From Octopus vulgaris (taxonomy: Eukaryota): DNA of 64,000 bases. The notes under the pieces are model-generated. The model searched no databases, had not been told where the DNA came from, and was given only the letters and a program-made list of their open reading frames with translations. Positions 19,907-54,327 of this stretch are shown here, piece after piece. Made by a program: the position numbers and the translations under genes. The stretch covers positions 68,324,001-68,388,000 of the forward strand of contig OX597828.1 of assembly GCA_951406725.2 (NCBI GenBank). The letters run 5' to 3'. The number at the start of each line of letters is the position of its first letter. The stretch's first letter is position 1.

Positions 19907-20254
19907 GGTACTACTAGCGAACAGTGGTCCCGGTCCGCGCCAGCTAGTCGTAAGTAGTCGATCCTACAACGACTTTGCGCCTATGTTTGTATTTCAAGGC
20001 TGAATACATATCAAAGAAAATTAAATAATATTTTTCGAATAAAGTAAATAAAACGCAAAATAAATCATTTTTTAAACTATGTAAATAAATTATTTTTTAA
20101 AACAATGTATATAACTTTTTTTACACAAATTAAATAAAACACAAAGTAGGGTTAGGTTTAGGGTTAAAAAGTCGTTGTAGGATCGATTACTTTACGACCA
20201 GCTAGAGCGGATGTGCGAGTGCGCGCACCGGGACCACTGTTCGCTAGTAGTACC
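19907..20254. mobile_element. Merlin-like MITE (GGTACTACTAGCG family)
   Basis: TIR GGTACTACTAGCGAACAGTGGTCCCGG; TSD cagaggag/cagaggaa; internal TTAGGG-like units. Confidence 0.8.
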
Positions 20255-20673: not shown

Positions 20674-20853
20674 CTCCGGGGGTAATGCCGCTGTGGCTGT
20701 TAAATTGGTTGTTGTTGCAGCAGCCAAAGCGGCTGTTGATGATGATGATGATGGTGATGTCGATGTTATTGATGAGGTTAGTGGAAGTGTTGGTGAGACA
20801 ACAGGAGTACTGGACAAGGCAGAAACCAGGGTGCAGGGGTTGGTAGCCATCAT
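20674..20853 (-). CDS. CSTF3: Candidate first coding exon of CSTF3 (60 aa, S/T/A/P-rich)
   Basis: aacaagATGATGGCT start; open for 60 codons (MMATNPCTLV...AALPPE); ends at a consensus GAG|GTAAGT donor in phase 0, compatible with the 926-1027 exon; lies just downstream of a promoter-like region. No homology support. Confidence 0.62.
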
Positions 20854-21416
20854 CTTGTTTGTGGTTGAATATGGATATATATATATATATATTGGTTTTC
20901 TAGTTCGATAATCGATCACTTACGACTGTGTTTCAACGTGTATGAAGAAAGGAGTGGGTGTTTAGGTAGAAAAACACTGTTTTAGATACAAATATATAAA
21001 TTTTAGTGTTGTGTGTTATACGTAGGTGTATGTTAAACGTTGTGTATTTGAATGTAGAGATTGAAATTAGATTCTATATGAGATCGGCAAAATACTTAAG
21101 GACCACTGTTCGCTAGTAGTACCCACAATTTGTCTAGGAGAGAAAAAAGGGAGACATTACCTTGGAAAAGGACAAAAAAAAAAGGAAAAACGGGGAACGA
21201 GAAAACAAAAGAAATTAAAATTTGAATTCTGTGGGATTTCACATATGTTGGTAGATATCAGGTGGAAGAAAAGAGAGATTCGTGAGATGTGGTTAAAAGT
21301 GGGGAGATAGAGAAACATAAAACAGCCCCCCAAAAAAAAGAGAGAGAGAGAGAGAAGAATTAATAAAGTCTTTGTTTTCGCTCCATGGAAGAAGTAATTA
21401 GGTTTTGGTTACTTAC

Positions 21417-21620
21417 AGATCATCTTGATGGCCGGGAGGGGGGAGAAAGGAGGAGAAATTGGGAGGATAAAGGAGGAAAAAAATGTGGTGTATGTGTGCG
21501 TTTGGTTCGTGTTTCTTGGGTTAAGCCTTACTACGGATTCTAGAAGTAATCTTTGCCGTTGTTTGTGAGTGGGGAAGAATATTATTTGATGAATAAAAAG
21601 CCAAAGTCACTGCAACAAAA
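21417..21620 (-). other. CSTF3: Candidate 5' UTR exon of CSTF3 (5' boundary uncertain)
   Basis: Minus-strand donor GATCT|GTAAGT at 21417/21416, just downstream of the NRF1-like promoter motif. Confidence 0.4.
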
Positions 21621-21680
21621 TGGTCACCGGATAGTCAGGCTTCTGCGCATGCGTGCCGCTGTCATTAACCGGATGTCGGT
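21610..21680. promoter_or_regulatory. Probable CSTF3 housekeeping promoter
   Basis: TGCGCATGCG (NRF1/EWG-like) at 21644-21653, AAAATGGT (YY1-like) and CCGGAT motifs, with local CpG enrichment upstream of the candidate first exons. Confidence 0.5.
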
Positions 21681-21917
21681 AATTTTAGAACAGTTTTATA
21701 GTCAGGGAATGCTTGTGTTAGAAATAATAAATCGACTTTACTCTTGCTTTAATTTATATGACCACGAAAGGCAAAGTTTGTCCCCACCCAACGTTATTTG
21801 GAATGAGAATGTCAAAATCCGTTGCTAAATATCACAAAGCATTTGACAGATGCTCCCCGCCATTAGTATTCCCTCCACCATGTCACGTCAGCTTTGTGCT
21901 TAAAAAATGTTCCAACT

Positions 21918-28839: not shown

Positions 28840-29200
28840 ATTTCTTTACTACCCACAAGGGGCTAAACACAGAGGGGACAGACAAACGGATTAAGTCGAT
28901 TATATCGACCCCAGTGCGTAACTGGTACTTAATTTATCGACCCCAAAAGGATGAAAGGCAAAGTCGACCTCGGCGGAATTTGAACTCGTAACGGACAACG
29001 AAATACCTATTTCTTTACTACCCACAAGGGACTAAACACAGAGAGAACAAACAAGGATAGACCCCAGTGCATAACTGGTACTTAATTTATCAACTCCAAA
29101 AGGATGAAAGGCAAAGTCGACTCAACTCAGAATGTAGTGGCAGACGAAATGCCGCTAAGCATTTCACATGGTGTGCTAACGATTCTGCCAGCTCGCCACC
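28840..29200 (-). mobile_element. Two tandem family A SINEs
   Basis: Repeated ctatttctttactacccacaaggg tails at about 28838 and 29007. Confidence 0.85.
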
Positions 29201-29716
29201 TTCCTTTATTTGCATACCCTTAACATTACCATATAAAAATTTAAAAGTTATGTATGTATGTAAAGCAGCCCCACATATTAAAGATATATACATACGGGTA
29301 TCTTATGTGTGCATGGGTGAACTATAACCTATCATTCTTGAACTAAGTAGCTACCTTTATTTGTTGCATGATTATCAAACAGACATATTTTGAGGCCCTC
29401 TTCTACTTTGTAGTAAACACAACATATATTTGTTAAATGGTGAATAACACCAGAGAAATGTAAACTAGTGTTAATTTATGTCAATGGGTATAATCTAGCT
29501 GCCTAGACAGACTGGTGAGCCTTCCTGCACTTACAGATGGCTGTCTGTACTATGAAACGAGATGAGCTATAGACACAAATTCCAAAGCTGTGATCTGCTC
29601 AGCTGGGAAAATCAATAAACAAGTCTACATGTATTGAAAACACACATATACACATGTACTACTTTAACATGTAGTTTACTGCAGTAGCCATAGTCTACAC
29701 TGAAAAGGCTTGATCT

Positions 29717-30174
29717 GGGTTAGGATTAGGGTTAAGGTTTACGGTCAGAGTTTAAGGGTTAGGTTAGGGTTGGGATTAGGGTTTAGAGCAGTGGTTCCCA
29801 AACTTTTTGGGACTGCTGCCCCCTTGGCACTCAGGCCCCATTCTTAGCATCTCCCCCACCCCGACCAAAACAAATTTTCTACAACAAATTCAAAACCACA
29901 GTTTTTCACAAATAAAATTGAACCTAATTAACCTATTATTTTGTTGTTTTTACATACACCCCCCCCCTTTTCGCTACCCCATTATCACCTTTCTTTTCTT
30001 CAATGCTGGATCTTTCCACTGGCCCCAGAGGGCAGTACTGCCCACTTTGGAAACCACTGGTTTAGAGTTTAGCGTTAAGGTTAAGGTTAGAGTTTAGATT
30101 TGGGTTAGGTTAGAGTTTAGGGTTAAGGTTAATGTTTAGGTTTGGGTTAGGTTTAGGGTTAGGGTTAGGGTTAA
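29717..30174 (+). repeat. Degenerate interstitial (TTAGGG)n tract split by a MITE
   Basis: TTAGGG/TTAAGG/TTTAGG variants at 29717-29788 and 30060-30174. Confidence 0.85.
29789..30059. mobile_element. hAT (Charlie-like) MITE
   Basis: TIR CAGTGGTTCCCAAA/TTTGGAAACCACTG; perfect 8-bp TSD gtttagag at 29781-29788 and 30060-30067. Confidence 0.88.
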
Positions 30175-30952
30175 ACTGTGCACACTAAAGCATAAATGAC
30201 CAGGTAGACCTAAAGTGGCACCGACAACATCTGGTCACTTACTATTATAAATTCTAGAGCTACTAACATTAAAACAAACACACGTAATAGAAAAGACAAC
30301 CACAGAGGAATGACTGCAAAGGCTAGTAGTGTGGTAGCAAATCAATTATTTAATAAAAGTAAAATATAATCGATATGCTTTTATTGGTGAAATGATGTAA
30401 AAACTACTTTGCATGCATGCATGTATGTAAGTATTGAAGAGAGCTTTAAACCATCCTTTATATCTATTATACACTGATGTAAGAACAGGTCGTTTATAAA
30501 GCTTGAAACACGTGTACCGTGATATCCTTTGTGTTCTGTTTTTGCTTTTATTAGATATATGTATGTATGGCTGGATGGGTGGCGGACGGGTCAATTCATG
30601 CATGTATGCATGCGTGCGTGTCTGTACGCATGTATGTCTTTGAATGAAGATTTTGATCACCATTCGAAACTATTGAGTGTTAATTCAATACTGGGGGGGG
30701 GGGGGGTCATTTGAAAGATTCTAGAGTGTAAAACTCAGCTTGGTGGCCAACATTCTCAGTTTAGATAATTATGTGAATGAACTAAACTTCATATAATGCG
30801 TGGCAGCCATCATCATTCAAACCTTAGCGTTCGAAGATATCTAGATAAAAGGGAAAGATTGGGGGGGGGGGGGATAACAACACACACACACAAATGTAGT
30901 TGTTAAAAGTACAATTAATATCCGACAAAATCTTCAAATTTATTGATTTACA

Positions 30953-31341
30953 GGATCTTTTCGGTTTGAACGGCAGTTTTTCCTAGCGGTGTCATATGAA
31001 ATTGTCACCCAGAATCGATCTATTGCATTTCAATCTGTTTTAGGGTTAGGGGTGGGGGGAAGGGTATCTTTTTTTCTTCACAAATGTAAATAAACCCAAA
31101 CTGTTTCTTAAACGAGGGACAAATTCATACGGCACAGAATGCTTTTTACCTCAATAGATGTCATTGAATGGTTGAAATTGCAGAAATTGAAGAAGAAAAA
31201 ACAACAAATATCTTACAAACTATAGAATTTTCTCAATAAAGCCAAGAGAAAAAGATGTTTTATAAACACATTCTACCAGGATACGAAGTTTAAAAGTGTT
31301 TAGTTATGTGGAAATTATTTTAAAAAACTGCCGTTCAAACC
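30953..31341. mobile_element. MITE with GGATCTTTTCGGTTTGAACGGCAG TIR and 8-bp TSD (Merlin-like)
   Basis: TSD gatttaca at 30945-30952 and 31342-31349; right TIR lacks its last bases; second copy in opposite orientation at about 52900-53316. Confidence 0.82.
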
Positions 31342-31344
31342 GAT

Positions 31345-32045
31345 TTACATAACTTAAGAAGAAATAAAATTTGACTTCGTTCCAGAACAAAGGAAAATAC
31401 AATAAGAAATAAACTTTGCGTTTAAAATTAATTGGAAACAATAACAGCGGCAAAGCATTATCAAACACGTGAGCAATTAGGAAAAAACATTATGAAATTA
31501 AGGTTGGTTGGCCAGACTTTGAATTGAGCTGACAAAAAAACATTGACCTTGATGTAGTCACGTTTCGCGCACGTGTTTCATAAATTGCGCCTGTGAGAAG
31601 CGACCAAGAAACACTATTACTGAACTCATTAATCTGTTTTACACCTTTTAATTATTTTTTTCTTCTTTGCTAAAAATAATATTTTATGCAGTCCATCGAG
31701 TACAGACATATGTTTTTTGTGCAGTTTTTACTTTTGTGTAATCATATTTACGAAGAAGATAACATGAAACTTATTTCTAATGTAAGTGACGTCATTACGG
31801 AACGGTTAATATAAAAGAAGGAATGTTTCTTATTTCGATCTTCTAGGGTAGCTTGGAATTTGTTTTTTATTTTTCCGCAGCTGTTAAGATAAAGTATTAA
31901 TAATACAAAACAACTATAAGTTTCCGCAAACCCTGAGTTTCGTTAATAACAGTTGTTGCTCTCGCTGAAGTCAGTTTATTTCCACTGAAAATAAAGAATC
32001 ACACAGAAAGATGTATAAAAACTACAAATTTTTATAAATGTACAC
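31345..32045. promoter_or_regulatory. Duplicated candidate clock enhancer, copy A (distal)
   Basis: TTACATAA D-box 31345, CACGTG 31466, TGACCTTGA 31544, CACGTT 31559 plus CACGTG 31570, TGACGTCA 31787; near-identical to 39375-40070. Confidence 0.6.
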
Positions 32046-32629
32046 GCATTTTCCCTGTCTTTTTTCCTCTTCCGTGTGAGTCTATGAATGTGTATTTATA
32101 TATTTAAAAATCTATTTATATATTGAAGACATCCTTTGTGCTTCTTTAGATTCCTTAAATTGCAGCAGGCACGTGTTTGATTTAGCAGTAACTGATTACA
32201 AGCTTTTGTTATTTTACATAATCTTAGGCAACAGTCGGTTACGTGTGTCGGTGAAGGTGGCGTAGTTGTTATTAATAGATGAAATTGTTTTATTAACAGA
32301 ACTGGTTTGAAATAAGCGCCCACACACATACGCACAGAGCGAAGTTTGGTGGGTAACTGGATATCGTTTAGGCTGTGTGTTGTTTCCCTATATACCGAAG
32401 TTAATAGAAAAATTTGTGTAGTAATTCCAGAATTAAGCATTTGAACATAATTTATTGTGTTGCCCTTGTATGAAAAGATGTTCATGCATTACCATGAATG
32501 GAAACACTAAGCTATGACCTGCAAAGAAAATGCATGTTCGAAGTTTAACACCAGGACTGGTTGGTTTTGACATATTAAGCAAATATACAGGTGCCGTACC
32601 ATGTCGTCTTCGATATCCTCGATAGAATA

Positions 32630-33698
32630 TGCAGCCGTTAAAGCAGAGAGAGAGAGTGTGTGTGTGTGTGTGTAATTCGAAGCTCGACCCAAGACACTCT
32701 AAAACTGGTGAGAGTGGAGAGTGTCACACCAGCTCGAACGTCTCGACACTCTGCCAAATTGGCGCCTTTATTGACGATATTTATAGGCTTTATTCACAGA
32801 AAGTTCCAGGCGGATTATAGAACTATCACCGGAGCATTTATTGGACAAGATATCGGTTGCGCACATGATAAAACAGTGATTAAATTGTGAGTTGAAATTC
32901 CTATATAGCAAAAAGCAGATTCGAATCCGATGCTACACACATTACTTGCTGAATCTGGAAGAAGCTGTTGCACATGAGCTTGCAGGTCGATAAGTCTGCC
33001 CTGAACTGTTACAGGTCGACACGCGGGAAAGATATGAGCAGGAAAAAAAATTTCTAGGAAGCAAAGCAAGGACTGAACATAATTGTTAGTGCAGGGCCTG
33101 GTGATGGAGATGGATATGCGAACGGATAGAGTTGTGCCTGAGAGTTGGAGACATAACACTAAACAGTTCTATTGAAGAGAGGCTATTATAATAGCAGTAG
33201 AAAAGAGAGAGAGAGAGGAAACTCGACGGAGAGAGGCTAGTGTCAGTCCATTAGTGATGGAATATCAATCAGTCAAGATAGTTCTCTAGATGCAATCGAG
33301 GATGTCTGCATATATTGTAACTAGCACTATGACCCGGCAAGGGGTCATTGCCAGTGCTGCCTGACTGGCCCCAGCGCTGGTGGCTCGTAAAAAGCACCGA
33401 CTACACTCTCGGGGTGGTTGGCGTTAGGAAGGGCATCTAGCTGTAGAAACACTGCCAGATCAGACTGGAGTCTGGTTCACCAGACCTCAGCCAATTCGTC
33501 CAACCCATGCTAGCATGGAAAGCGGATGTTAAACGATGATGATGACAGCCTATAAATAGTGTGAATTATTTTCTGCGCTTCGCAGTGTCGTAGACGTCCG
33601 AGCCGGTATGATGTCCTCTACTGTCGCCAATTTCAGAGTGTCTTGGGCTAAACTTCAAATTGCACACTCTCTCTCTATAGCTGTTTTAATGACTGCCT
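32630..33698. mobile_element. Old element with about 130-bp diverged terminal inverted repeats, interrupted by a family C copy
   Basis: ...cccaagacactctaaaactgg...cgacact is the reverse complement of agtgtcg...ccaatttcagagtgtcttggg... Confidence 0.6.
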
Positions 33699-34635
33699 AT
33701 TCTGTAGTGTGATGGAGGAAAAGGACAACCGAAAAAGAAGCAACGGGAGAAAGAAATACACAAGGCCTTACCTCTGCAAAATCAGTGGTCACTTTCATGA
33801 ATTCAACACGTCTTGTTGCTCTGCGCTCTTTGCTGGAACTGACCACACATGCTTCCTGCCCACGCATGCCCCTTTCACTCTTCCGCCGGCCCCTGCAAGC
33901 CTTACTTCCGCCCACCTCATCTGACATCCTCTCCACCAACACCACATAGCTCATCACAGCCCATAACACCGCTAACACCACATATTCAATCGAAGATATC
34001 AAAGAAACTGACATGACAAGGCAACTGTATATTTGCTTAATATGTTTAAACTTCAAATAGACATTTTCCTTGCATATCATATAATGCTATTTCTACCACA
34101 CTGTTTCTATATAGGAACTGCAAAACATGAACATCTTTTCATACTAATACAGCACAATAAATCATGCTCAAATGTTTGCTCAAAAGGAGCCAAAATTAAT
34201 TTCCCTGTTACTGGTATACCAGGGTGGAATAAATTGTGAAGTTCTGAAAAGTAACTGTTAGCCTATGTTTTTCTCTGGTACAAATGGCCTAGAAGACCCG
34301 ATAGAAACATCGCACCAAATTTGTGAATCACTAGAATGTAGTGGTAATAATCGATGGTCTAAAGAAAATAGCTCTGAATTCCTGAGCTGCAATAATCCTT
34401 CATTGTCGTTCTAATCCGCAGAAATTAATCGCATCACCTAAGTGTAGAGATATAAACACGAGATCATCCATGTGATGCAGAATTTTTAGAACCACTGACA
34501 TGACATATATACACAGTAAATTGTGAAATACAATCAAAGTGTCTAATGTGCAGTGGGGAATATTTGTCCGTTTTGGATCATTAATAGCTTATGATCAAAA
34601 TAAATAATAAAGCTTCTTCCTTCCAGGAAATTTAT

Positions 34636-35145
34636 GTTAGTTAGTTAGTTAATTTTTGGCTCAAAAAGTAAAAAGCAAGGCCATGTAGGGGGACATGGAG
34701 TTATGTACAGGGTGGTATTCATGTAAAGAGTTTAGGCCACTTGTGGTCAAGGGAGACTGAACCGAGCGGTCGTCGGCATCTTCACCATCTCGTCCGGCAG
34801 CTTATTCCATGGATCCGCAACCCAGACGGAGAAAGCCCCTCTCCTTCGATTGAGATGAAATCGTCGCAGATAGAGCTTTTTGGAGTGACCCCGCAGCTGA
34901 CGCTCTGGAGCAGGAGTAAAGAACAGCTCTTTCGAGAGGTTACACTTTCCGCTTATGATGTTGTGAGCAAGAATGAGATCACCACGGCGTCGTCGTTTTT
35001 CTAGAGAATAAAGGTCGAGCGTCTTCAGCTTTTCTTCATAAGACAAATTCTTGAGACCAAGAACCATGCGGGTAGCCAGCTTCTGGACTCTTTTGAGATG
35101 CTGTATGTCTTTGGGGAGATAAGGAGAAGAGGTTTGAATCCCGAT
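34636..35145 (-). mobile_element. CR1-type LINE 3' end
   Basis: ORF 34747-35067 LSYEEKLKTLDLYSLEKRRRRGDLI...LRGHSKKL...WNKLP is a typical CR1 ORF2 C-terminus; (TAAC)n tail at about 34637-34652. Confidence 0.9.
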
Positions 35146-35800
35146 GAAAGTGTTTTACTGACAAAAAAGCAGCCAGCAATTCTCACCTGAAGATACTTTA
35201 TCTTGTTTCGGACGACTTCAAACACTTCAAGAAGAAAGGAAGAGGTTGCCAAGAATTCTGGACAAACTGTTGCAACACTCCACCGATTCCTACGTTAGAT
35301 GCATCTATCACAAGGGACAAAAGTGCATCTGGTATCGAATGGGCTAATAGGGTGACTTTCGTTAATTTCTCTTTTATGTCGTTAAAATGTAATTCTGTTG
35401 GAAAGATGTTCTCTATTTTCCGTTTACGATTATGCAGTAATTCCGTTAATGGATAAATGGTCTCCGTGCAGTGCAAAATGAACCACCTATAAAGCCAAGG
35501 ACTTTCGCAACTTCCTTTGACAATGTAGGAACAGGGATTTTCATAATCGCATCTACTTTTGCCTTCAATGGCCGGATTCCATCTTTCCGATAATATGTCC
35601 TAAAAATGTTACTGATGAAATACCAAAAATGGTATTTACTGGAGTCAGTCATTACACTATAGTGTGATAATCTAATAAAACTTCTTCCAAATGCAGTTCT
35701 TTCGTAACACCCGTAATAAATAAGACATCGAAATAAGCAAACACAAAGTCTAAACTGTGACTGACATTTTAAGACACTCAGAGAGCCCCCAAAAGGTATG
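35146..35800 (-). mobile_element. Decayed Ty3/Gypsy pol (RT-RNase H) fragment
   Basis: LVIDASNVGIGGVLQQ..WQPLPFF..LKSSETR RNase H motif; DGIRPLKAKVDAI RT C-terminus. Confidence 0.88.
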
Positions 35801-36629
35801 TAACAAATAGCTTCTTAGATTCTTAGCCAAGATTCGAAATCTAACCTAGATTTTTCTCGGATTCGTTTCCTATTGCTCTTGGCTTTTGCACTTGGAAATT
35901 TATGAGGGTCAACTATCAACTTGGATAGTTCTATTCTTTAACTGTAACATTTCGAGAATAACTTCGGTCAAGGCAGATAAGACATGAAAAATCCTTTGTT
36001 TAGCATGACCTAACTTAGAGAAAATATAAATATGGAACCCAAATTCAGTTCTTCCTTTCATTTTGGCCCCGACAGAAGAAGCACCTCATACGAGGGACTA
36101 CACAACTTTCACTCTCTCTACTAGTCAACACACCGCCAGAAGTTGTTGTTGACAGACAACAGCAGTAATTTTATTCAGCTGAATACACGCCATTGATTAG
36201 TTGAACTTACCGAAATACGACAACTTTAACACAAAATTACTTTGAAAATACAAACTTTTCTCAACAACACTAAGAGTAAAAGATATTTTATATGACACAT
36301 TCAACCAGTGTCTGAAGTTTGAAAGTGTTTAGTTACAAAAAATTAATTTCTTGATCTGCCGTTCAAAAGGTAAAGATCCAAAACTTGCTCTATGCCGAAC
36401 ACCTGAACTCCATCGTGACAACCCACCTCATTGAAGAAAATAGCAGGAAAAGGCATCCTTAAATAGCTATGGGTTGGTTCAAACAGACCACACTTTTCTG
36501 GTTGGGCAAGTGGTCTACTTCTGAACTGATCACTCAACCACCTAAGTACTTTGGTTGAGATCAAATAATATAAATTTTGTCCTATTGTAAAAAAAATGTC
36601 TTCAGCAACATTCAATTTGGAACCATTCA

Positions 36630-37900
36630 AAACAGTTCAGCATCTCTTGATTGGTTGAAAGACATATATTCAGTTTTCTTGACATTTGCAGTTCTATTTT
36701 AGCAGCTGATGCTTCTATTCTGCTGAGTAGCTGTTGTGGTCAATCTATTTCATTAGATATGAGTGCAGTATCATCTGTGAAGTCCAGGTCTGTGATGGTT
36801 ATTGCTGGTACTCTCCATGATCTTTGCTGGTCTATGGTGAAACCAAGGTCTTTGTCACTGTTGTCTAAAGCCTGCTGCATTGCACAATCCAATACAACTG
36901 CAGACAGGTAAGGTGCAAGCGTATCTCCTAGTAGCATCCAAGATAATCATCATCATCATCATTTAACATCTGCTTTCTATGCTAGCATGGGTTGGACGAT
37001 TTTGACTGAGGGCTGACGAACCAGATGGCTGCACCAGGCTCCAATCTTGATCTGGCAGAGTTTCTACAGCTGGATGCCCTTCCTAACGCCAACCACTCCG
37101 AGAGTGTAATGGGTGCTTTTTAAGTGCCACCAGCACAAGAAAAAGCGGATAAAGAATTCCATTTCTCCGTCAGATGACAACACATGAGCTCTGGTCTTTC
37201 CATAGGTTTTTGCAATGACAAGAACAAGTTCTTTAGGAATGCCATATTCTCGAAGGATGTTCAATATTTTGTAATGATGGATGCTGTGAAATGCTTTGCT
37301 GAAGTCCATGAAGGTTATAATGGCAAGTAGCTGTCTTGATTCAATTCCTTCTACAACATGTCTCAGAGCTAAGATCTGAGATGTTGTTGATCTTTCTAGT
37401 CTAAATCCATTTTGATTTGCTCTCAGATGACCATCAAGCAACAGTTGAATCCTGCTGAGGACCATTCGGTTGATAACTTTGAGTGTGGGATATTGGACAG
37501 TGCAATTTCTTTGTAGTTACTTTCATTGCTGAGGTTTCCTGATTTTGGGATCAAGTCAATCTTGGACCACTACTCTGGAATTCTTTGGTTCTGCAAAATC
37601 CAGTATTATTTCATTCAGATTGCACCTCTTCTCTTCTCTCTTTTTATATTCTCTTATATACCATTGTATTTTTTTCTTTATTTTCTGCTTATATACACAG
37701 GAGTGTGAAAGACTAAGGGAGTAAATCCCTACAGAAAATTCAGAAAGAAGGCCCCTAAGACAGTTGGTTGGGAGGACTGAGTCAAACCATCTTCTGGCAG
37801 CCCCCAGTGTAGAGAAAACTTCCATCCACCAGGTCCCCAGATGGCAGATAGGGGAAAGGCCTTCAGATATGAAGGTTAGCTGTGATATAAAAATGAACAG
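36630..37900 (-). mobile_element. Decayed RTE-clade LINE, interrupted by a family C element (36947-37137)
   Basis: LRANQNGFR..RSTTSQILALR..FMDFSKAFHSIH; GDTLAPYL..TDLDFTDD. Confidence 0.88.
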
Positions 37901-38354
37901 ACCTGACCAAACATACCAAGATTAAACCTCAATGACAAAAAATCCCAGTCTTGAATGGTGGGAGGTTGTTATGTGGGAGATGCAAGCTCAACAAACTAAT
38001 TCAATGGATCCACACAATTTCTGCCTCAGCCAGGGAGATCTTGTTTCTAATGAGGAAATGCAATCTACAGGAGGTGTGTGATTGCTGTCAGTATTAAGTT
38101 ATTGAAAAACCAAAAAGATGGAGACATGCATGATACAAACACGACACATTTCAAGCACATGCATTCTTAACTGAACAAATGCACACTAACACAAGGCTTC
38201 AATTCACACACATACATATAAACATTAGACTTAAACACACCTGCAACAAATGTACAGTAATATGTAGAACTTTGTGAATAAACACATATCCATAGCTTTT
38301 GTATGCGAAATGGAAAATTTGAAGACAGATGATACCCACACAGGTACACGGTTT

Positions 38355-38945
38355 ATCTTGTTTCAGTCATGAGACTGTGACCATGCTGGGGCACTGCCTT
38401 GAAGAATTTTTAGTCGAATGAATTGACCTCAGTTCCTTTTTTAAAAACTGGTACTTATTCTATCGGTCACTTTGCCGAACCGCTAAGTTACGGGGACGTA
38501 AACACACCAACAGCAGTTGTCAAGCGGTGATGTGGGGACAAACGCAGACACAAATATATATATATATGTAAAATGTGACCGCGTGTGTACCGTTGGCGAT
38601 TTTTCCTCCCTCTTCCCTTCCTTGGATCTTTCCTTTTCCTATGTTTCTGACGAAGAGCTCTGCTCGAAACGTTAAATCCTCCTTCTTTCTTTCCTTTCCT
38701 GAGCGTCTAATAACACTATACTTGTTCCACGTCCTCGCGTTGTTGTGTTTTCATGTTTGGATTAACTGTATATATATATATATATATATAACGGGCTTCT
38801 TTCAGTTTCCATCTATCAAATCCACTCACAAGGGTTTGATCGGCCCGAGGTTCTAGTAGACGACACTTGCCCAAGCTGTCACGCAGTGGGACTGAACGAG
38901 GAACGATGTAGTTGGGAAGCGTCTTGCCACACGCCTGCACCTACA
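38355..38945 (-). mobile_element. Family B SINE with a Penelope-like insert (about 38570-38765) in its (TA)n tract
   Basis: SINE halves flank a segment bordered by (TA)n on both sides that holds the hammerhead motif. Confidence 0.7.
38643..38677 (+). ncRNA. Minimal type I hammerhead ribozyme motif (Penelope/retrozyme-like)
   Basis: GTTT-CTGACGA-A-GAGC(TCT)GCTC-GAAA-CGT-T-AAAT: intact core, 4-bp helix II, palindromic ACGT helix III, short helix I. Confidence 0.65.
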
Positions 38946-39374
38946 TGCAAGTAAAATTTTCGTTAGTGAAAAATCAAGCCCTTGTTACCTCTGTAATAAA
39001 TAATATGGACATTGTATTTAGAAATAATACATTCATGTCGGATTATCATGATTCTTATTCAACCTGTTGGCCACGAACCCAGGGCGCTATTTCCCGGCCA
39101 ATGCCCAGTATCGTAATACAATACACGTATGTGCGTTAATGTATTATTGTATGCCTGTGTGTGTGTTTGAATTAAAATTTGATTACTAAATGATAAATAT
39201 TAGTTTTAAATATATGAATAGATTTCATACTATGAGTACAATCGTCTTCATTCATCAGTAGAGAGGAGGGAAAGATTCAGAAAAAAAAAAGACAAGTAAA
39301 TAATACGCATAAAAATATGCAGATGTGTTTAAAGTACAGTAAGCATCCAACTACCAGTCTTCAAATGTATTCAT

Positions 39375-40070
39375 TTACATAACTTAAGAGATCAAATTTG
39401 ACTTCGTTCCAGAGCAAAGGTAAATACAATAAATAAAAACTGGAAACAAGTGAATCGGTAACAGCGGCAAAGCATTAACAAACACGTGAGCAATTAGGAA
39501 AAAACATTATGAAATTAAGGTTGGTTGGCCAGACTTTGAATTGAGCTGACAAAAAAACATTGACCTTGATGTAGTCACGTTTCGCGCACGTGTTTCATAA
39601 ATTGCGCCTGTAGAAAGCGACCAAGAAACACTATTACTGAACTCATTAATCTGTTTTACACCTTTTAAATATTTTTTTCTTCTTTGCTACAAATAATATT
39701 TTATGCAGTCCATTGAGTACAGACATATGTTTTTTGTGCAGTGTCGTTTTTACTTTTGTGTAATAATATTTACGAAGAAGATAACATGAAACTTATTTCT
39801 AATGTAAGTGACGTCATTACGGAACGGTTAATCTAAAAGAAGGAATGTTTCTTATTTCGATCTTCTAGGGTAGCTTGGAATTTGTTTTTATTTTTCCGCA
39901 GCTGTTAAGAAAAAGTATTAATAATACAAAACAACTATAAGTTTCCGCGAAACCTGTGTTTCGTTAATAACAGTTGTTGCTCTCGCTGAAGTCGGTATAT
40001 TTCCAATGACGATAAAAAAAAATTACGCAAAACGATATATAAGAACTACAAATTTTTATAAATTCACGTG
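39375..40070. promoter_or_regulatory. Duplicated candidate clock enhancer, copy B (proximal)
   Basis: TTACATAA 39375, CACGTG 39483, TGACCTTGA 39561, CACGTT 39576 plus CACGTG 39587, TGACGTCA 39809, extra CACGTG 40065. Confidence 0.6.
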
Positions 40071-40136
40071 TTTGTGATGACAGCACCAGTTACATGCTTT
40101 CGTATTGCGTTGTCAGATAAATTCGTTCGTTTCTTA

Positions 40137-40187
<51 letters not shown>

Positions 40188-40189
40188 TT

Positions 40190-40440
40190 TGGTTTTACAT
40201 CCCCTCAACAACTTTTGTGTAGCATTTATAAAATTCTAATAAATTTTTACTTTCAGGCATATGACGATGACGGACCAGGTAGTAAATAATGAGCAGTTTT
40301 GGCACCTGCTTCTCTTCATTTTCGATCAAGTTTCTCAGACTGACAAAGCCACTCGAGGCATTTATGTTGTGTACGGAGAATATGCTATTACTGGAAGAAC
40401 TGCACAGATATGGCTTCAACCGTATCGTTTCTGTCAAAAG
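40190..40440 (+). mobile_element. mariner transposase N-terminal remnant
   Basis: EQFWHLLLFIFDQ...KATRGIYVVYGEYAITGRTAQIW resembles the mariner helix-turn-helix N-terminus. Confidence 0.72.
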
Positions 40441-41929
40441 ACCGACCACTTACAATCCCTGTTTTGTTTTGTAGTACTTTCGTTACCATCCTCGAACACA
40501 CTTATTTTTCCTATACTTCTTCGATATTCGCATGCACCTGTCTACCCTCTGGCAGCTGAAACATGTTGTTTGAAATCGCTGGATACAACAATATCGTTAT
40601 TGGTATCGAAATTGTTGTATTGACTGCCAGTCTGACAGACCTTTACATAAGCTTGTGCTGTGTTTTGGTTTTCTCTTTCAAGTTATTCTGGTGTCCTTCT
40701 GTTCCACCTTTTCACGCACACATATACACAAACATACATGTATATGAGATTGTGTATGTGTGTAGAAGAAAAAAAAGATACCTACTGATAGGGATACTCA
40801 CTACTACCAGTAAAATTTAGAAAATTCGTTTGATCAGGTGAAAGTTGAAAACCTTCACTTGAACACTTTCACCTGAATAAACTGCCAAGCGAAACTCAAA
40901 GTCCATGTCTGAACAAATTTCCTAAGTATGTGTGGGTTTCTGTGTGCATGTGTGTGGGCGCGCGCAATGTTTGCTTCTGTGAGTATGTATATGCATATTG
41001 CATGTATGTGTGTGTATGTACGTGTATGGAATCTTTTCGCTTCATTTTGAAAATCTGCCGGTCAAAGCGATAAGATCCCGTGTATGTATATTATAGATAT
41101 GTTACATGACCGTAGGCAGTAGAAATCTAGTTCATCTAAATAATATATCGAATCACCGGGAGTGCACATTTCAACTCGAATTCGGTGCTATGAGTATAAT
41201 CTATATCAATTAAACAAACGAAACGAATGAACCTTGAACTGGCAGAGTTGATAAAGCGCCAGAGAAAATAAATATGTCATTTTTCTTAGATGTTTGAGGT
41301 CAATTTCGTTATGCACCTTTAGCAATACAGTACCAATCCAGGGTTATGGTTTTGCATTATTGTCAAAATGTGGGTCGAAATTCCTTACTGCCGTTTACCT
41401 TCTGAAGACAACACCAATGATGACATTAGTACCAACCTTTATCTTAGTGAGAAATTTGAAGGATGTAAAATTTCTCTGCAAGCGTAGGTCTAAAGATACA
41501 TAGACTTTAGGTCAATAAGATAGATAGCTGAAACCTGATTTTCTTTCAAGCTTGTTAAAAAGTTCTAGAATACTCCATGGGACCTTTAGGCGCAAAATTA
41601 AACTTTTCTTATTTGTTAACACCTTCAGAAAACTGGCGCCAAAGACGATCGGCTGGAAAAAATGTCAATAGGTGTTATAAGGGAGTTCAAAGATATAATC
41701 AAAATTAGCTCTGGTCAATATTATCAAATATCATTAATCGTTTGTGGATATTATCTCTATTCAACATTTTACCGAATATAGTAATATTATTTGCCAGCGG
41801 TTTTGACTTTCGAACTCAAACATTCCAAACATGCATACAAATACATACACACACACATACGTTCAGACTAATTCGATGAAGTAATTTAATTGCCATAGTC
41901 ATCATCAAAACATTGGGAAGATGCAGATC

Positions 41930-42870
41930 TTGTATCAACACTTTCTATCTCCGGGCCCCACTCCCCTCTTCGATCGGTAGCCCCCTATCTGATCGCGCTA
42001 TCCAATACTGTAGTATGTGTTGACAGGACTATTCCTGCACCACTCTCAGTCAACTCTGATGTTACCCAGGTTCGGTTCTGACCCTCACTCTTTTCTTTCA
42101 AAACCGCAATAACCCACTTAGCGCCACATTCAGCAACGCCCATACTTTGGCTGATGATATAGCTCTTCAATCCTTCCTAACTTTCACCGGTTATGCATCA
42201 TCCACACGCAACCTAAACGCCACACACTAAATCTGCCTGGATTCCATAAACGGAAACCTCGAGAGAATTTCCAGTGCAGTGAAACCAATCTTATCCAACT
42301 TAAAACCAAATCTCAAGCACTACTCATATGAACAAAACAGACCTACACCATACCTCCCCGAAAACATAGGCGGCACTCAGCCAGAGCCTTCGCATATGCT
42401 CCAAATGTTAGTCCCAACTGAGGATCTCTCTTGGCGAAAGCACCTTACCATAGCTAGGGCTGCATCCCAAAGACTGGCTCGTCTTTTCAAAGCTAGGAAA
42501 TATTTCAGTCCCAAACTGCTGCTGATGCTCTTCGAACCTTAAAAGAGGTCCACAATAGAATACTTGCTCCCATATTTGGCACGGTGTCGCTGCTATGTTA
42601 CATATATGTGCTAGTTTGCATCAGAAAAGGGTCACTCGATTGAGATACAATCACTAATTGACAGGTTCCAAAATAAAAACACATTGGTGTGTTTTTATTT
42701 TCTATATCGCCACCGTAATTCTATGTTCCACGGTGCTGGCTCGTCTTGTGCCTCCGAGACTGCTGACTCACTCGTTGCGACCATTTACCTGGCTCTGCAT
42801 TTTCTTCTCGCTCAAATGTTTCCTGCAGGTGTTGACCTGTAACAGTTTAAGTAGAACATTAACGACTTGC
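41930..42870 (+). mobile_element. Decayed CR1/Jockey-group LINE RT fragment
   Basis: VNSDVTQGSVL (GVPQGSVL-like) at about 42050 and LADD at about 42150; RLARLFKARKYFSP. Confidence 0.7.
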
Positions 42871-43087
42871 ACGGTCAGGAGCGCTATCTCTTCTTTCACC
42901 CACATTCCCCCACAAAATACATACAATCTCTAAGGAAAGCAGCCACATTAAAACACTATCAACTTTTAAAAAAATGGTTCCATGTATTGGATAATGTAGT
43001 TTTAAATGAAATAAAACTGCTGGTTGTGGTTAGGTCTTTGATCCTAAGTTTGTTCGAAGCTGACCAGCGGCTAAACAAGGTAAATGT

Positions 43088-44065
43088 GGTACTACTAGCG
43101 CACAGTGGTCCCGGTGCGCGCACTCGCGCATCCGCGCTAGCTAGTCGCGACTAGTTGATCCTACAACGACTACCTAGCAAAGTAAATAAGACACAAAATA
43201 AATAATTTTGGGTGTGTGGTAAGTAGCTTGTTTACCAACCACATGGTTCCGGGTTCAGTCCCACTGCGTGGCACCTTGGGCAAGTGTCTTCTACTATAGC
43301 CTCGGGCCGACCAAAGCCTTGTGAGTGGATTTGGTAGACGGAAACTGAAAGAAGACCGTAGTATATATGTATATATATATGTATGTTTGTATGTGTGTGT
43401 TTGTCCCCCTAGCATTGTTTGACAACCGATGCTGGTGTGTTTATGTCCCCGTCACTTAGCGGTTCGGCAAAAGAGACCGATAGAATAAGTACTGGGCTTA
43501 CACAGAATAAGTTCCGGAGTCGAATTGCTCGATTAAAGGCGGTGCACCAGCATGGCCGCAGTCAAAATGACCGAAACAAGTAAAAAGAGAAAAAGTTGGT
43601 CGTGTGGTAAGTAGCTTGCTAACCAACCACATGGTTCCGGGTTCAGTCCCACTGCGTGGCATCTTGGGCAAGTGTCTTCTGCTATAGCCCCGGGCCGACC
43701 AATGCCTTGTGAGTGGATTTGGTAGACGGAAACTGAAAGAAGCCTGTCGTATATATGTATATGTATATAAGTGTGTGTGTATGCGTTTGTGTGTCTGTGT
43801 TTGTCCCCCTAGCATTGCTTGACAACCGATGCTGGTGTGTTTACGTCCCCGTCACTTAGCGGTTCGGCAAAAGAGACCGATAGAATAAGTACTGGGCTTA
43901 CAAGGAATAAGTCCTGGGGTCGATTTGCTCGACTAAAGGCGATGCTCCAGCATGGCCGCAGTCAAATGGCTGAAACAAGTAAAAGAGTAAAAGAGTATTA
44001 CTAGCTAGCGCGGATGCGCGAGTACGCGAGTGCGCGCACCGGGACCACTGTTCGCTAGTAGTACC
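43088..44065. mobile_element. Merlin-like MITE (GGTACTACTAGCG family) containing two family B SINEs (43214-43590, 43600-43995)
   Basis: TIRs GGTACTACTAGCG...CGCTAGTAGTACC; perfect 8-bp TSD gtaaatgt at 43080-43087 and 44066-44073. Confidence 0.9.
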
Positions 44066-44073
44066 GTAAATGT

Positions 44074-44400
44074 AACAGTCACACGCAATCATAGTGCGAC
44101 GACTTTTGATAAACTTTCTCGCAGTGTGTCTAGATGAAAAGAAGAAGGAGAAGAAGAAGAAGAAGGAAAGCCAGAAAGGCGAAGTCAATTAAATGAATAG
44201 GTTGCACTTCCCAGCAGCAGCAGCAACGTATGTCATCCAGTTTGTAAAACAGAGAAATTCACAACCACTTTCTCTCAACACGGACGATGCAACGTGACTT
44301 TCACTAAGTCACGTGCTGCCAACCGACGAATCGCGTCGCTCCCTTTCCCTCACTTCGCCAACAGAGTCGCGCTTTTGCTTTCTCTTTTTTACAAAGAACA
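44074..44400 (+). promoter_or_regulatory. Probable Cry proximal promoter with an E'-box/E-box pair
   Basis: CpG-enriched unique sequence 0.6-0.9 kb upstream of the ATG; AACGTG at 44291-44296 and CACGTG at 44310-44315. Confidence 0.6.
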
Positions 44401-44971
44401 TTACCGCATACTTCATGTCGTTTAGGGTGCTTCATCACTATCATCGCTTCCTACACTAACTCAATGGTTTCATATTAGACTCAATTATTCATTCCTGACC
44501 ATTGCAGACATTATACAAACAACATACAACGTGCGTGAATGTATGAATGAAGGCTGCAAGTCTAAGCGATAGCAAGAAGGCAACCGAAAAGCAAGTGCGA
44601 CGTTGGATATATTGCATTATATTCGGTTTTAGGATTAATTTTTTCCCCTTTCAAATAAGCAGCCAAATCACATCAACAATGAGGCGTTTACTACATAATA
44701 CAATCGGTGACCAGTCTGGGACATAAAGAATATTCGCTTTGGATTATACTTTTATTCACAATCCTAATTCTTTATATCCATTGGAATACTTGATCGTTGT
44801 TGTTTTCGTGTTCATCTCTCTTTCTATCTAAATTCCCTGCACAATCAATATACACCGCATTATTATCTATTTATTTTATATAAATCTCATATACCGTCTA
44901 CAGCAAGTGTTCAATTACACACATATATATATACATCTATATCTTACATAAAAAAATCCATCATCTCAATT

Positions 44972-45141
44972 ATGTCTAATGAATCGGGTAAACATGTCAT
45001 TCATTGGTTTCGCAAAGGGTTGCGCCTTCACGACAACCCGGCGCTAATGGAAGCTTTGAAGGGTGCCACAACTCTTCGATGTATTTACACATTGGACCCA
45101 TGGTTTGCTGGATCCTCGCAAGTTGGAATTAACAAATGGGG
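44972..45141 (+). CDS. CRY: Mammalian-type (repressor) cryptochrome, coding exon 1
   Basis: ATG at 44972: [56 protein letters not shown], then GG|GTAAGT (phase 2). [15 protein letters not shown] and LDPWFAGSS are signatures of vertebrate CRY1/2 and insect CRY2. Confidence 0.97.
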
Positions 45142-46920
45142 GTAAGTTGTTTTTTCAGTGTTGTTAATTTGTCTACCGAAATGGACGAACCTTAAAAAAA
45201 AACGTAAGTTTTGTTGTTGTTGTTTTCGATCGAATACCCCTTTCTTCTGACATTGATTACAATGTATCACCGTTTGTTAAGGTTGTCATAATATTTCGTT
45301 AACTTTTTCCCTCGATATTGACAAACTAGTTCATTTTTTTTAAAAGTTAAACTATCAAATTTCGACAGACTTTTGAAATCGCGGTTCCTTAAAGTCCCAT
45401 ATTGCTTGCAGAAGGAAAAAGGAGCAAAAATGCGAAAGATTAAAATTTTGGGGAAAAACTATTATTTTTTTTTTCAGAATCGCCATTTTCATTGTGTGAA
45501 ACACTGGAATATTAAAATCATTGTGTAAGGTATAAATAATGATGACTCCAAAACTCTCTCCGCCTGGATTTCATGACGCCATTAACATAATACGTTCATC
45601 AGGCTTAAAAGTGGTTCCACTTTGATAAATGTACGGGGCATCGGTTTAATTTTGAACAGCATTAGAGAGAGGTCTTACAGGTTTTTCGAAATCATATCAC
45701 TGACATTTTAGCCTGTGTCGGTTGATCTCTGAACGAAATAGAAATGAGATCCCCAATATGTAATAAAGTGGCTTTCCTGAATTAACGAAACGAATAAATA
45801 CGTGGTTACAGGTAAGTTTAAAAGGCAACTGGCAGAATCGTTAGCCTCAGAGAAAAAGATTTACATTATTTACTCTGGTCCTTGATGTTCTGAGTTCGAA
45901 TTTTGTTGGAGTCAACTTTGTCTTTCATCCTTTCGGAGGAATAAATTAAAATGCCAGTGAAGCACTCTGGTCGGTGGTAAGTTCTGAGTTCAAATTCCGC
46001 CGAGGTCGACTTTGCCTTTTATCCTTTCGGGGTCGATAAATTAAGTACCAGTTACTCACTGGGGTCGATATAATCGGCTTAATCCGTTTGTCCCCTCTGT
46101 GTTTAGCCCCTTGTAGGTAGTAAAGAAATAGGTATCGACTTACCCAAGCCGGTGGAGCTGGACAACAGTCGTCCTCATCCCCACAGACTGAGCTTTCGGA
46201 ATTTGTTTTGGTGGTGGGGTTTGACTGTCGTCCCGCTCCACCCCCAAGCCTCTGAGAATTTACCTAAATCGGTAACAATTGTTACAGGTAATGTTGTTAT
46301 TATAGGTTTTTATTTTCGTTACTTTACACCATCATTAAGTAAGACTAGTTAACTTATGCTATCTTTGTTAAACACAAAACAAAGCAAAAAGTATTAAAAC
46401 TGTTTACGAGAAGTCAGCGAGCACGGGTCACTATTTGAACATTTTCGGAAATGAAAGAAAAAAAAAAGTAAAAATAAAAAACTGGATTGTGTCCTTAAAG
46501 TATTTCGTAATTCAGAGAAGTCAAGTTATTATGCTCGTATCCCGAGGTCCCCTTCCAAAATGACGCCCCGAAGTTTTATGATACATCTTTCTTCATTTCT
46601 GTTCAGTCTAACAAATTAACAATGATCTCTCTTATATAGCATCCTATTATTATCCTTTTGCACCTGGGATGCCTTAAAGGGAATATGTTGACCATTTAAC
46701 ACTCTGGCTGTCAGGCGTGGTTAGGTAGTGTCTTAAAGCTTAGGACCTTAGCTACTTATTTATTTTATGCATCTTTGTGAGATGTGTATTCAGGGAGAAG
46801 CCTTACTATACTTTCTTTTTCCTTTTCTGCTTTCTGGAAACAAACAAAAAAACAAAACATTGTCTTATATCTGGTATTGACACAAATTATTGAAATAACT
46901 TAAGTAGGAGAAATATTTAA

Positions 46921-52899: not shown

Positions 52900-53316
52900 T
52901 TTTTTTTTTCGGTTTGAACGGCAGTTTTTAAAAGTAATTTCCACGTAACTAAACACTTTTAAACTTCGTATACTGGTGGAATGTGTTACATAAAACATCT
53001 TTTTCTCTTGGCTTTATTGAGAAAATTCTATAGTTTGTAAAATATTTCTTGTTTTTTCTTCTTCAATTTCTGCAATTTCAACCAGTCAATGATGTCTATT
53101 GAGGTAAAAAAAAACATTCTGTGCCGTATGAATATGTCCCTCGTTTAAGCAACAGATTTGGTTTATTTACATTTGTGAAGAAAAAAAGATACCCTTCCCC
53201 CCTCCCCTAACCCTAAAACAGATTGAAATGCAATAGATCGATACTAAGGTCATAATTATGGGTGACAATTTCATATGACACCACTAGAAAAGCTGCCGTT
53301 CAAACCGAAAAGATCC
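52900..53316. mobile_element. Second copy of the GGATCTTTTCGGTTTGAACGGCAG MITE
   Basis: Reverse complement of 30953-31341; ends ...CAAACCGAAAAGATCC. Confidence 0.82.
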
Positions 53317-54327
53317 TTTTTTTCTTCTGAACACTCTTAATTTCTCTCCGTTGTCTCCCTCTCATATTAGGATTTATTTTCTATAAGCACTAGAAAGTTA
53401 GGAAGTTATGGCCTTCATACATTTTACTTTAGGGGTCTTGAATTAAGGGCCGAGTTTTGGAATGGCTATTGCTATTTCATGGGAAAGGAAAAGGGCACGA
53501 AATTGAGATGATGATGGGGTGGGGAAAAATATAAAAATTGAAATGTTTGGAAAAAATATTCAGAATTGTCAGCACTGTTGCATGAAACAGGGAAACAAGG
53601 GCTTCAGTAAACACTGAAGATGGTGCAGGGAACCCCACCCGATTCTATGCTTTTTTCCCTTGGTCATGACGTTCAGTGGCTACGCATATACCTGATGATC
53701 ATATTACTTTACGTCCTTAATTACAGGTATTTTAGATTAAAGGTAAATAGAAATAATAATGAGAAATAGCTTCGAGGCAACGACTAGGAATTGTTAGGGA
53801 GAGAAAAATGTCAGCTGGTGGTAGTGTGAGAGAGGAAGGGGAGGTGCCATGTCTTTGGGGGAGGGAGGGGACATCAGCAGCTCTGAGACGCATTGAACAC
53901 ACACACACACACACACACACATTTATTGCCTTGTATTAACGGCCATAGCCAGAGGGCACCACATGTACATAGGTACAACTTAGCGGTTTGGCAAAAAGAG
54001 ACCAGTAGAATAAGTGCCAGGCTTGAAGCTGTGTCCCCAGCACAGCTGCAGTCCAATGACTAAGGCAGGCCAAAGGAAATAAAAGCACATGCATCAGCAC
54101 ACGACAACCGTTTGTCAAAAGTTCTTCCAAAATAGATTTGAGATTGGAAAAGCAAAACAGGTTTTCTCACATCAGCTGAAACCTGAATAAGTTTGTGACT
54201 GTTGCTGTGTTAGTATTTCACACACATTACAATGACGGCATTAGTACACTCACTCATCAATGCTGTATTTGCCTATGCAGGCTTGATAGACTGAAGTGTA
54301 GGGAGTCTCTGATCATGGTATATATAC

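Follow-up and report, generated by a model that had tools for sequence, protein, structure and literature searches.

Near-identical blocks rich in clock motifs lie upstream of a cryptochrome gene (Cry) in the octopus genome. Do they control this gene, and what keeps them alike? The question concerns a stretch of 64,000 nucleotides from Octopus vulgaris (assembly GCA_951406725.2, contig OX597828.1, positions 68,324,001 to 68,388,000, forward strand), hereafter the window, in which a first reading (the original prediction) had proposed a doubled circadian enhancer. CLOCK:BMAL1 acts on E and E′ boxes, PAR-bZIP factors and VRI on D-boxes, CREB on the cAMP response element (CRE), and ERR/FTZ-F1-type receptors on sites of their own. 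Cephalopod clock genes have already been catalogued, and the cephalopod clock is little studied. The open literature, outside which most subscription journals fall, yielded no publication that treats the regulatory DNA of octopus clock genes, nor any on duplicated enhancers under gene conversion. Here we propose, with a probability of about 0.55, that the blocks are units of ~1 kb derived from an old tandem duplication, that their ~540-base cores are kept alike by conversion, and that each is a predicted CLOCK:BMAL1-driven promoter-enhancer.

Results and discussion

Two direct copies with ordered clock motifs

Alignment bore out the claim of two direct copies upstream of Cry. The cores (31441–31975 in copy 1, 39458–39995 in copy 2) share 533 aligned columns with 15 mismatches, two of them terminal, and three indels of 5, 1 and 1 nt; a single mismatch falls within 31442–31594. 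The cores start 13,531 and 5,514 nt, respectively, before the Cry ATG at 44972. A motif scan recovered five kinds of motif in the same order in both copies, as had been stated, namely the D-box-like TTACATAA, an E-box, TCAAGGTCA on the minus strand, CACGTT-N5-CACGTG and a full CRE. Their positions and order stood; the D-box (31345/39375) falls outside the core as delimited. Within the 64 kb, the full CRE and TCAAGGTCA are confined to the two copies, and the two units, which make up 2.5% of the window, hold 6 of its 15 CACGTG words. Dinucleotide shuffles of copy 2 reached its three E/E′ boxes in 78 of 5000 cases and its total of six motif sites in 0 of 5000, the latter figure being inflated because the motif list was picked after the sequence had been seen. 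The Poisson probability of three CACGTG in 734 nt was ~2e-4, for a stretch whose limits were likewise set after the fact. The ratio of observed to expected CpG was 1.36 in the copy 2 core and 1.23 in the copy 1 core, against a median of 0.46 across 118 windows of the stretch, which places the cores among the top 5 of the 118. With motif CpGs masked, the core ratio was 1.10, a level reached by 9 of the 118. D-box-like words number 21 in the window; further ones at 40643, 44876 and 44944 (the first in the mariner-derived exon described below, the others in the 5′ untranslated region (UTR) of Cry) may therefore be due to chance.

The downstream gene was correctly recognised as a repressor-type cryptochrome. 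The Cry exons within the window are identical to protein P0007, which carries the names of O. vulgaris and O. sinensis; by its sequence, the window belongs to the vulgaris/sinensis group of octopuses. P0007 scored E 1e-267 against the best CRY1 chains, compared with 1e-168 for 6-4 photolyase and ~1e-113 for the lowest-scoring cryptochrome group, which we take to be Drosophila CRY. Sequence comparison thus identifies the Cry product as a mammalian-type (repressor) cryptochrome that is nearer to vertebrate CRY1/2 than to 6-4 photolyase or Drosophila CRY. P0007 and Sepia cryptochrome 123 share a 90% cluster, and the cephalopod CRY123/Cry2 proteins described in passages on Sepia (PMC7553075) and Euprymna (PMC3622930) belong to the same class.

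Both copies are present in independent animals

Part of the core was detected in 20 of 24 runs listed, under five organism codes. The detailed comparison covers the DNA runs X2 and X6 and the RNA-like runs X11 and X14; runs with a share below 0.2, including organism E, were left out of it. Differences, joints and pieces come from partial lists and are to be read throughout as those among the ones listed. In run X6, a DNA contig (38869–39508) leads from unique sequence into the copy 2 core, and contigs of X2 and X6 span 31943 to 32591. The contig ends at 39508 and 31943 form exactly 30-nt overlaps with the stretches common to both copies (39479–39611 and 31937–31972). Such ends occur where an assembly graph branches with both copies present, indicating that both copies are real in these two runs.

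Read depth was 66–160 in the core bins, 52–79 in the Cry 5′ UTR bin and 10^4–10^7 in bins of short interspersed elements (SINEs) and miniature inverted-repeat transposable elements (MITEs). The core thus lies 100- to 100,000-fold under the common repeats. Depth is not copy number, and the summed depth could hide a third or fourth copy; a common dispersed transposon is excluded for the core. Two of the outcomes that would have undone the original prediction, namely many dispersed copies and a single copy doubled in assembly, were accordingly not found, the former by depth and the latter by the contig ends. We regard it as hardly credible that the pair is an artefact, with two haplotypes assembled in tandem, or a dispersed transposon. 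Octopus DNA is rich in repeats and the depth leaves room for a further copy or two, but the flanks are only 75% alike and alleles differ by ~1%, so that the flanks are not alleles; moreover, the contig ends in both DNA runs fit both copies and the core depth is near the single-copy level. A motif-grammar scan of metagenome contigs returned 23 loci, none of which matched the core by BLAST, and a search of 29000–46000 against Rfam gave two chance-level matches only (both E 0.78), outside the copies. Separately, the piece 37775–38410 differs from both DNA runs at 26 of 628 letters, roughly threefold the mean for the remaining listed pieces of unique sequence.

A spliced RNA joins the upstream region to a mariner relic

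A spliced RNA on the same strand as Cry lies between copy 2 and the gene. Runs X11 and X14, although not recorded as RNA, behave as such, since the alignment of their Cry contigs breaks off at 45141, the donor of exon 1, beyond which the contigs continue for 1384 and 1861 letters. One X14 contig (39467–39804, depth 5.7) carries 14 unaligned letters, whose sequence was unseen, beyond a donor within copy 2; position 39804 is the G of AAT/GTAAGT, the sole 8-of-9 donor among the 37 GT of the core. Isoform X1 of the RefSeq gene LOC118766559 has an exon at 36834–36907, antisense to a LINE-like relic (LINE, long interspersed element), and splices from 36907 to 40257, so that copy 2 lies in an X1 intron. 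Isoform X2 begins MKLK. Between 21700 and 40256, three sites lie within one change of the needed X2 codons plus donor, and the two that keep the ATG (31492 and 39509) are both in the cores.

The exon shared by both isoforms is covered by an RNA-like contig (40281–40707, depth 67) with 49 unaligned letters in front. Its open reading frame (ORF, 40261–40623), which matches P0001/P0002 at 94–95%, holds a decayed helix-turn-helix of a Mos1-type mariner (Pfam HTH_48 at E 2e-5, slightly over the threshold; Atlas lead 0.87). Six of 120 residues are changed, against 4–8 expected under neutrality, and no full-length relative was found among 1.84 billion representatives. These three observations suggest that the upstream spliced RNA is likely non-coding, and its acceptor at 40257 was probably donated by the mariner relic. 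A functional LOC118766559 protein had been considered as a candidate and was rejected, the ORF being a mariner relic. We note that XP_036365874/5, the RefSeq protein models of O. sinensis LOC118766559, consist of a decayed mariner transposase start followed by random sequence. The unit is likely a promoter with a first exon. With splice donors of the upstream RNA apparently inside it, the unit is described only in part by the term enhancer; what stands is a real motif-rich, CpG-rich, low-copy unit upstream of Cry.

A probably old duplication with a probably homogenised centre

Homology extends beyond the cores, on the left to ~30750/39195 and on the right to 32213/40106. In the left flank, 141 of 187 aligned columns are identical, with 14 gaps, and the local score of 68 compares with a background maximum of 46 in 2930 windows. 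The outer block on the right scored 34, a value reached by 0 of 7822 background windows. Copy 1 contains a MITE adjoining its D-box, and copy 2 presents the empty site with a single ATTTACA, suggesting that the MITE entered once the duplication had taken place; in both DNA runs the depth of the MITE bin exceeds 2 million. As the flanks are 75–93% alike and one of them holds this later MITE, the duplication is likely old. A duplicated second exon was also considered and rejected, the right side of copy 1 showing no significant likeness to 40188–40720 (4442 of 7826 and 2501 of 7826 background windows scored as high).

Divergence amounts to 15/533 in the core and 46/187 in the left flank. Passages of Osada and Innan (PMC2588116) ascribe a near-identical centre with decaying edges to gene conversion, and the sequence pattern suggests that the cores are likely kept alike in this way. 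A homogeneous centre with decaying edges being the expected mark of conversion, near-identity is no proof of conserved function. The comparison between animals pointed in the same direction: the two core contigs listed differ from copy 2 at 7 of 593 letters, and the unique flanks at 83 of 6561 and 105 of 8391, although a mixing of paralogs, errors or RNA editing may blur the core figure. In copy 2 the 5-nt indel varies between animals, being absent in X2 (52/52 depth), X6 (76.6/117.9) and an X11 contig, and present in X14. The X14 contig has one letter in and one out, which would fit the copy 1 version of 31595–31597 (letters unseen).

These results bear on the explanation first offered, in which two redundant (shadow) enhancers owe their 97% identity solely to purifying selection on each, near-identity being taken as a sign of conserved function. 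That sign did not survive, as the core varies like unique flanks and the conversion pattern fits. Of 14 events, a single one falls in the 153 nt of the E-box part, the least changed of the core (binomial P 0.06), and the core is present under five organism codes, both of which would agree with selection. In unique DNA, however, the compared organisms differ from the window by just ~1.25%, so that retention of the core says nothing about conservation; five of the eight A/T runs in the core are unchanged too, one indel is not fixed by copy, and the unit is apparently spliced. We therefore consider purifying selection alone a very unlikely explanation.

A Gypsy relic between the copies

In stating that no feature identifies the copies as a transposon, the first reading overlooked three clues of the kind expected for long terminal repeats (LTRs), namely a Gypsy relic, a tRNA match and a pyrimidine tract; most tests of an LTR pair failed. 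A broken Gypsy-type pol relic lies between the direct repeats in a consistent orientation (minus strand), with a Pfam RT_RNaseH_2 match at 35150–35400 (E 1.3e-15). It is flanked by what we take to be reverse transcriptase-like and integrase zinc-finger-like motifs (the latter near 34230), which are without Pfam match. Neither gag nor protease nor integrase gave a Pfam match in 127 ORF pieces and 21 read-through frames, domains that old relics lose. The ESM Atlas returned nothing for the integrase-like piece, and relatives of the relic were absent from the viral contigs, PDB and phages searched.

The second clue is the match to the 3′ end of tRNA-Gly(GCC), for which the reference letters were taken from passages of PMC4928997 and PMC12025293. 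It lies just inside the weak left limit of copy 2 (39115; 71 of 7833 background windows score as high) and could represent either a decayed tRNA relic or, in an element on the minus strand, the primer-binding site. No tRNA gene was detected there by ARAGORN, and Rfam gave no match (38950–39250); the tRNA-like 14-mer occurred at 120 viral loci, none of them a tRNA by ARAGORN. The third clue, a pyrimidine tract (one of five on the plus strand), starts 4 nt inside the main right end of copy 1, where both copies have CA.

Taken together, all three clues point the same way, towards copies that represent the LTR pair of an ancient Gypsy element on the minus strand and were homogenised by conversion within this element, with promoter motifs that were co-opted or left over. 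We nevertheless find this distinctly unlikely. The primer-binding side is weak but compatible with an LTR pair; on the other side, homology does not stop at the polypurine-tract-like stretch but passes the CA ends (32170–32213 versus 40065–40106; 0/7822), and the tract sits in an insert found only in copy 1. No TG..CA ends with a 4–6 nt target duplication were found (CA ends 40060–40125, TG starts 30500–30960), there is no TG beside the tRNA match, and gag, protease and integrase remained unmatched. By eye, the tRNA likeness seems to extend to the anticodon arm, as it would in a tRNA relic. The Gypsy relic is presumably akin to the CsRn1 clade. Passages on this clade describe the use of tRNA-Trp and short LTRs (381 bp in PwRn1; PMC2582038), which would not fit the copies. 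It would be a long shot that the twins are domesticated Gypsy LTRs, locked by conversion and serving as two clock-driven Cry promoter-enhancers spliced into a mariner relic; if true, a core clock feedback input would have been built from three transposon pieces.

Two further repeats were noticed. The left side of the Gypsy relic is cut off by an old inverted duplication (32435–32800 versus 33540–34177, 68–69% alike), which may represent the two arms of a DNA transposon. The 271 nt at 29789–30059 form an element that ends in CAGTGG..CCACTG, has an 8-nt target duplication (GTTTAGAG) and is presumably hAT-like; it is inserted in a telomere-like GTTAGG array (~29715–30175).

Comparison with known systems

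The nearest tested precedent for the octopus units is a functional E/E′-box block upstream of mussel per. According to passages of a preprint (bioRxiv 10.1101/2025.10.08.681125), block 118 comprises 638 nt with one E and two E′ boxes, lies 6–7.6 kb upstream of the gene, and is activated by Clock:Bmal and repressed by Cry2. Like the octopus unit, this Bathymodiolus BazBlock118 comes from a mollusc and measures ~600 nt, with three E/E′ boxes bunched at the 5′ side. It lies 6–8 kb upstream of a negative-limb clock gene, with a second E-box block ~13–19 kb out, an arrangement like that in the octopus. The Bathymodiolus blocks, however, serve per rather than cry and are not described as duplicates in those passages; BazBlock118 is active in S2 cells and was defined by cross-species conservation, whereas the octopus unit is known from its sequence, duplicated and apparently spliced.

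In passages on the light-responsive region of zebrafish cry1a and the E-box/D-box module of per2 (PMC3516543), a D-box and an E-box likewise stand upstream of a repressor-type cryptochrome. The cry1a region differs in being proximal, single-copy and mutation-tested, and its D-box alone drives the light response (PMC3516543); the octopus D-box, in contrast, is a consensus match. [quoted passage not shown] In the mouse, binding of BMAL1, a rhythm and contact over a long range were shown, and the DNA of the start element may act independently of the RNA (PMC5449593); for the octopus such properties are predicted. The octopus RNA also differs in that its last exon is a mariner relic and its start element is doubled. 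The duplicated Amy and Bob blocks of Drosophila, which are subject to interlocus gene conversion (PMC2588116, in part), share the near-identical centre, the diverging edges and a growing spacer, but they are genes and were tested against orthologs, whereas the octopus blocks are non-coding DNA. Among cephalopods, the head of the squid Euprymna shows a daily variation of escry2 RNA (PMC3622930); the words E-box and promoter do not occur in that text, and the Sepia passages (PMC7553075) deal with phylogeny and expression.

Proposed mechanism and its weighing

We propose that predicted binding of CLOCK:BMAL1 to the E/E′ boxes of each copy would drive transcription, which PAR-bZIP/VRI, CREB and an ERR/FTZ-F1-type receptor would modulate. 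Transcription would start near the left edge of a core, and the RNA would exit via donor 39803 or 39519 (31781 or 31502 in copy 1) and splice to the acceptor at 40257. The resulting, likely non-coding RNA, predicted to be rhythmic, would end in the mariner relic, ~3.5 kb before Cry's own start. Acting on Cry from 5 and 13 kb away, as we predict, the units would add to its proximal E′/E pair; CRY would repress them, closing the loop, and conversion would keep both copies functionally equal.

Several observations weigh against this proposal. Cry has its own E′/E pair (44291–44315), and the distal units may therefore not be needed. The donor evidence consists of the single X14 contig of depth 5.7 with its 14 unseen letters; X14 contigs of like depth are unspliced at 32683–34658, an X11 contig (depth 2.1) reads through the 39803/39804 donor, and no joint into Cry occurs among the joints listed. 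At 31492 and 39509, the window would encode MKLR instead of MKLK. Variation in the core matches that of the unique flanks in the contigs listed, with no sign of constraint, the LTR-like clues are not all explained, and a second E-box block of mussel per was reported, in the preprint passages, to be inactive (bioRxiv 10.1101/2025.10.08.681125).

Some of these points are shared by an alternative in which the unit does no more than supply a by-product RNA with its promoter and first exon, the copies are kept alike by conversion with no selection involved, and the proximal boxes of Cry itself control the gene. Such a by-product would agree with the variability of the core between animals (in the contigs listed), with an RNA that ends in a mariner relic whose ORF drifts neutrally, and with the E′/E pair of Cry, whose 5′ ends lie near 44500. 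It leaves aside, however, that the densest clock-motif cluster of the 64 kb adjoins a core clock gene. The D-box and the outer E-box are also retained in both copies outside the homogenised core, a sign of little weight, as the alignment is itself anchored by words of this kind. We judge this alternative unlikely.

The locus and its neighbours

RNA-like contigs of Cry have their 5′ ends at 44538 (X11) and 44495 (X14), just downstream of the E′/E pair, and we place the main start of Cry there. On the other side, Cry faces CSTF3 head-to-head, with ~23 kb between them (20674–21700 versus 44495–44972). Copy 1 is 10 kb from the first CSTF3 exon and 13 kb from Cry; being nearer to the former, it may also have CSTF3 as a target. 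By eye, CpG-rich inverted arms (43085–43175 and 43998–44110) flank a SINE cluster just upstream of the Cry promoter, and similar arms occur near the first coding exon of CSTF3 (~19910–20235 and 21105). The features of the locus are collected in Table 1.

Table 1 Features of the locus; positions count from the first letter of the window
Feature	Position	Strand	Contents or basis
CSTF3 first coding exon, divergent neighbour	20674–20853	-	100% to O. vulgaris CSTF3-like P0003
CSTF3 upstream donor; promoter-like stretch	~21418; ~21600–21700	-	read from sequence
Copy 1 diverged left flank	30750–30952	+	homologous to 39195–39379
MITE in copy 1	30953–31342	.	390 nt; ATTTACA on both sides; 90% copy at 52909–53317
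D-box-like TTACATAA, copy 1	31345–31352	+	motif scan
Copy 1 core	31441–31975	+	E-box 31466; candidate donor 31502/31503; TCAAGGTCA 31544 (minus); CACGTT-N5-CACGTG (E′-N5-E) 31559–31575; donor 31781/31782; CRE 31787
Stretch of ~125 nt found only in copy 1	32046–32169	+	includes pyrimidine tract 32049–32073
Outer homologous block, copy 1, with further E-box	32170–32213	+	matches 40065–40106; D-box-like site 32214
Broken Gypsy-type pol relic between the copies	34200–36100	-	interrupted by LINE-like piece ~34660–35150
LOC118766559 isoform X1 exon (RefSeq), coding part	36834–36907	+	P0002 N-terminus; donor CAG/GTAAGG
tRNA-Gly(GCC) 3′-end match	39091–39107	+	17 of the last 18 letters, with CCA; by eye
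Copy 2 left flank	39195–39457	+	D-box-like TTACATAA at 39375; motif scan, alignment
Copy 2 core	39458–39995	+	E-box 39483; candidate donor 39519/39520; TCAAGGTCA 39561 (minus); CACGTT-N5-CACGTG (E′-N5-E) 39576–39592; donor 39803/39804; CRE 39809
Outer block, copy 2, with further E-box	40065–40106	+	followed by TA microsatellite
Shared downstream exon of LOC118766559	40257–40900	+	acceptor TTTCAG/G; ORF 40261–40623; AATAAA 40876; putative 3′ end
E′ box and E box, likely proximal Cry promoter	44291–44315	.	motif scan
Cry exon 1	44495–45141	+	5′ UTR from at least 44495; ATG 44972; donor 45141/45142
Later Cry exons	59693, 63113, 63541	+	identity to P0007

Conclusions

Control of cryptochromes by E- and D-boxes and enhancer-associated circadian lncRNAs are already known, and since the former is well established the surprise is limited. 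What is likely new is a doubled, putative clock promoter-enhancer, probably locked by conversion, with an RNA that ends in a transposon relic. The analysis exposes the RefSeq LOC118766559 protein as a transposon relic, and the duplicate offers a clean case for parting gene conversion from selection in non-coding DNA. For the little-studied cephalopod clock, the ~540-base core is a native candidate reporter for a possible CLOCK:BMAL1/CRY loop in the octopus, as the mussel per block is for bivalves.

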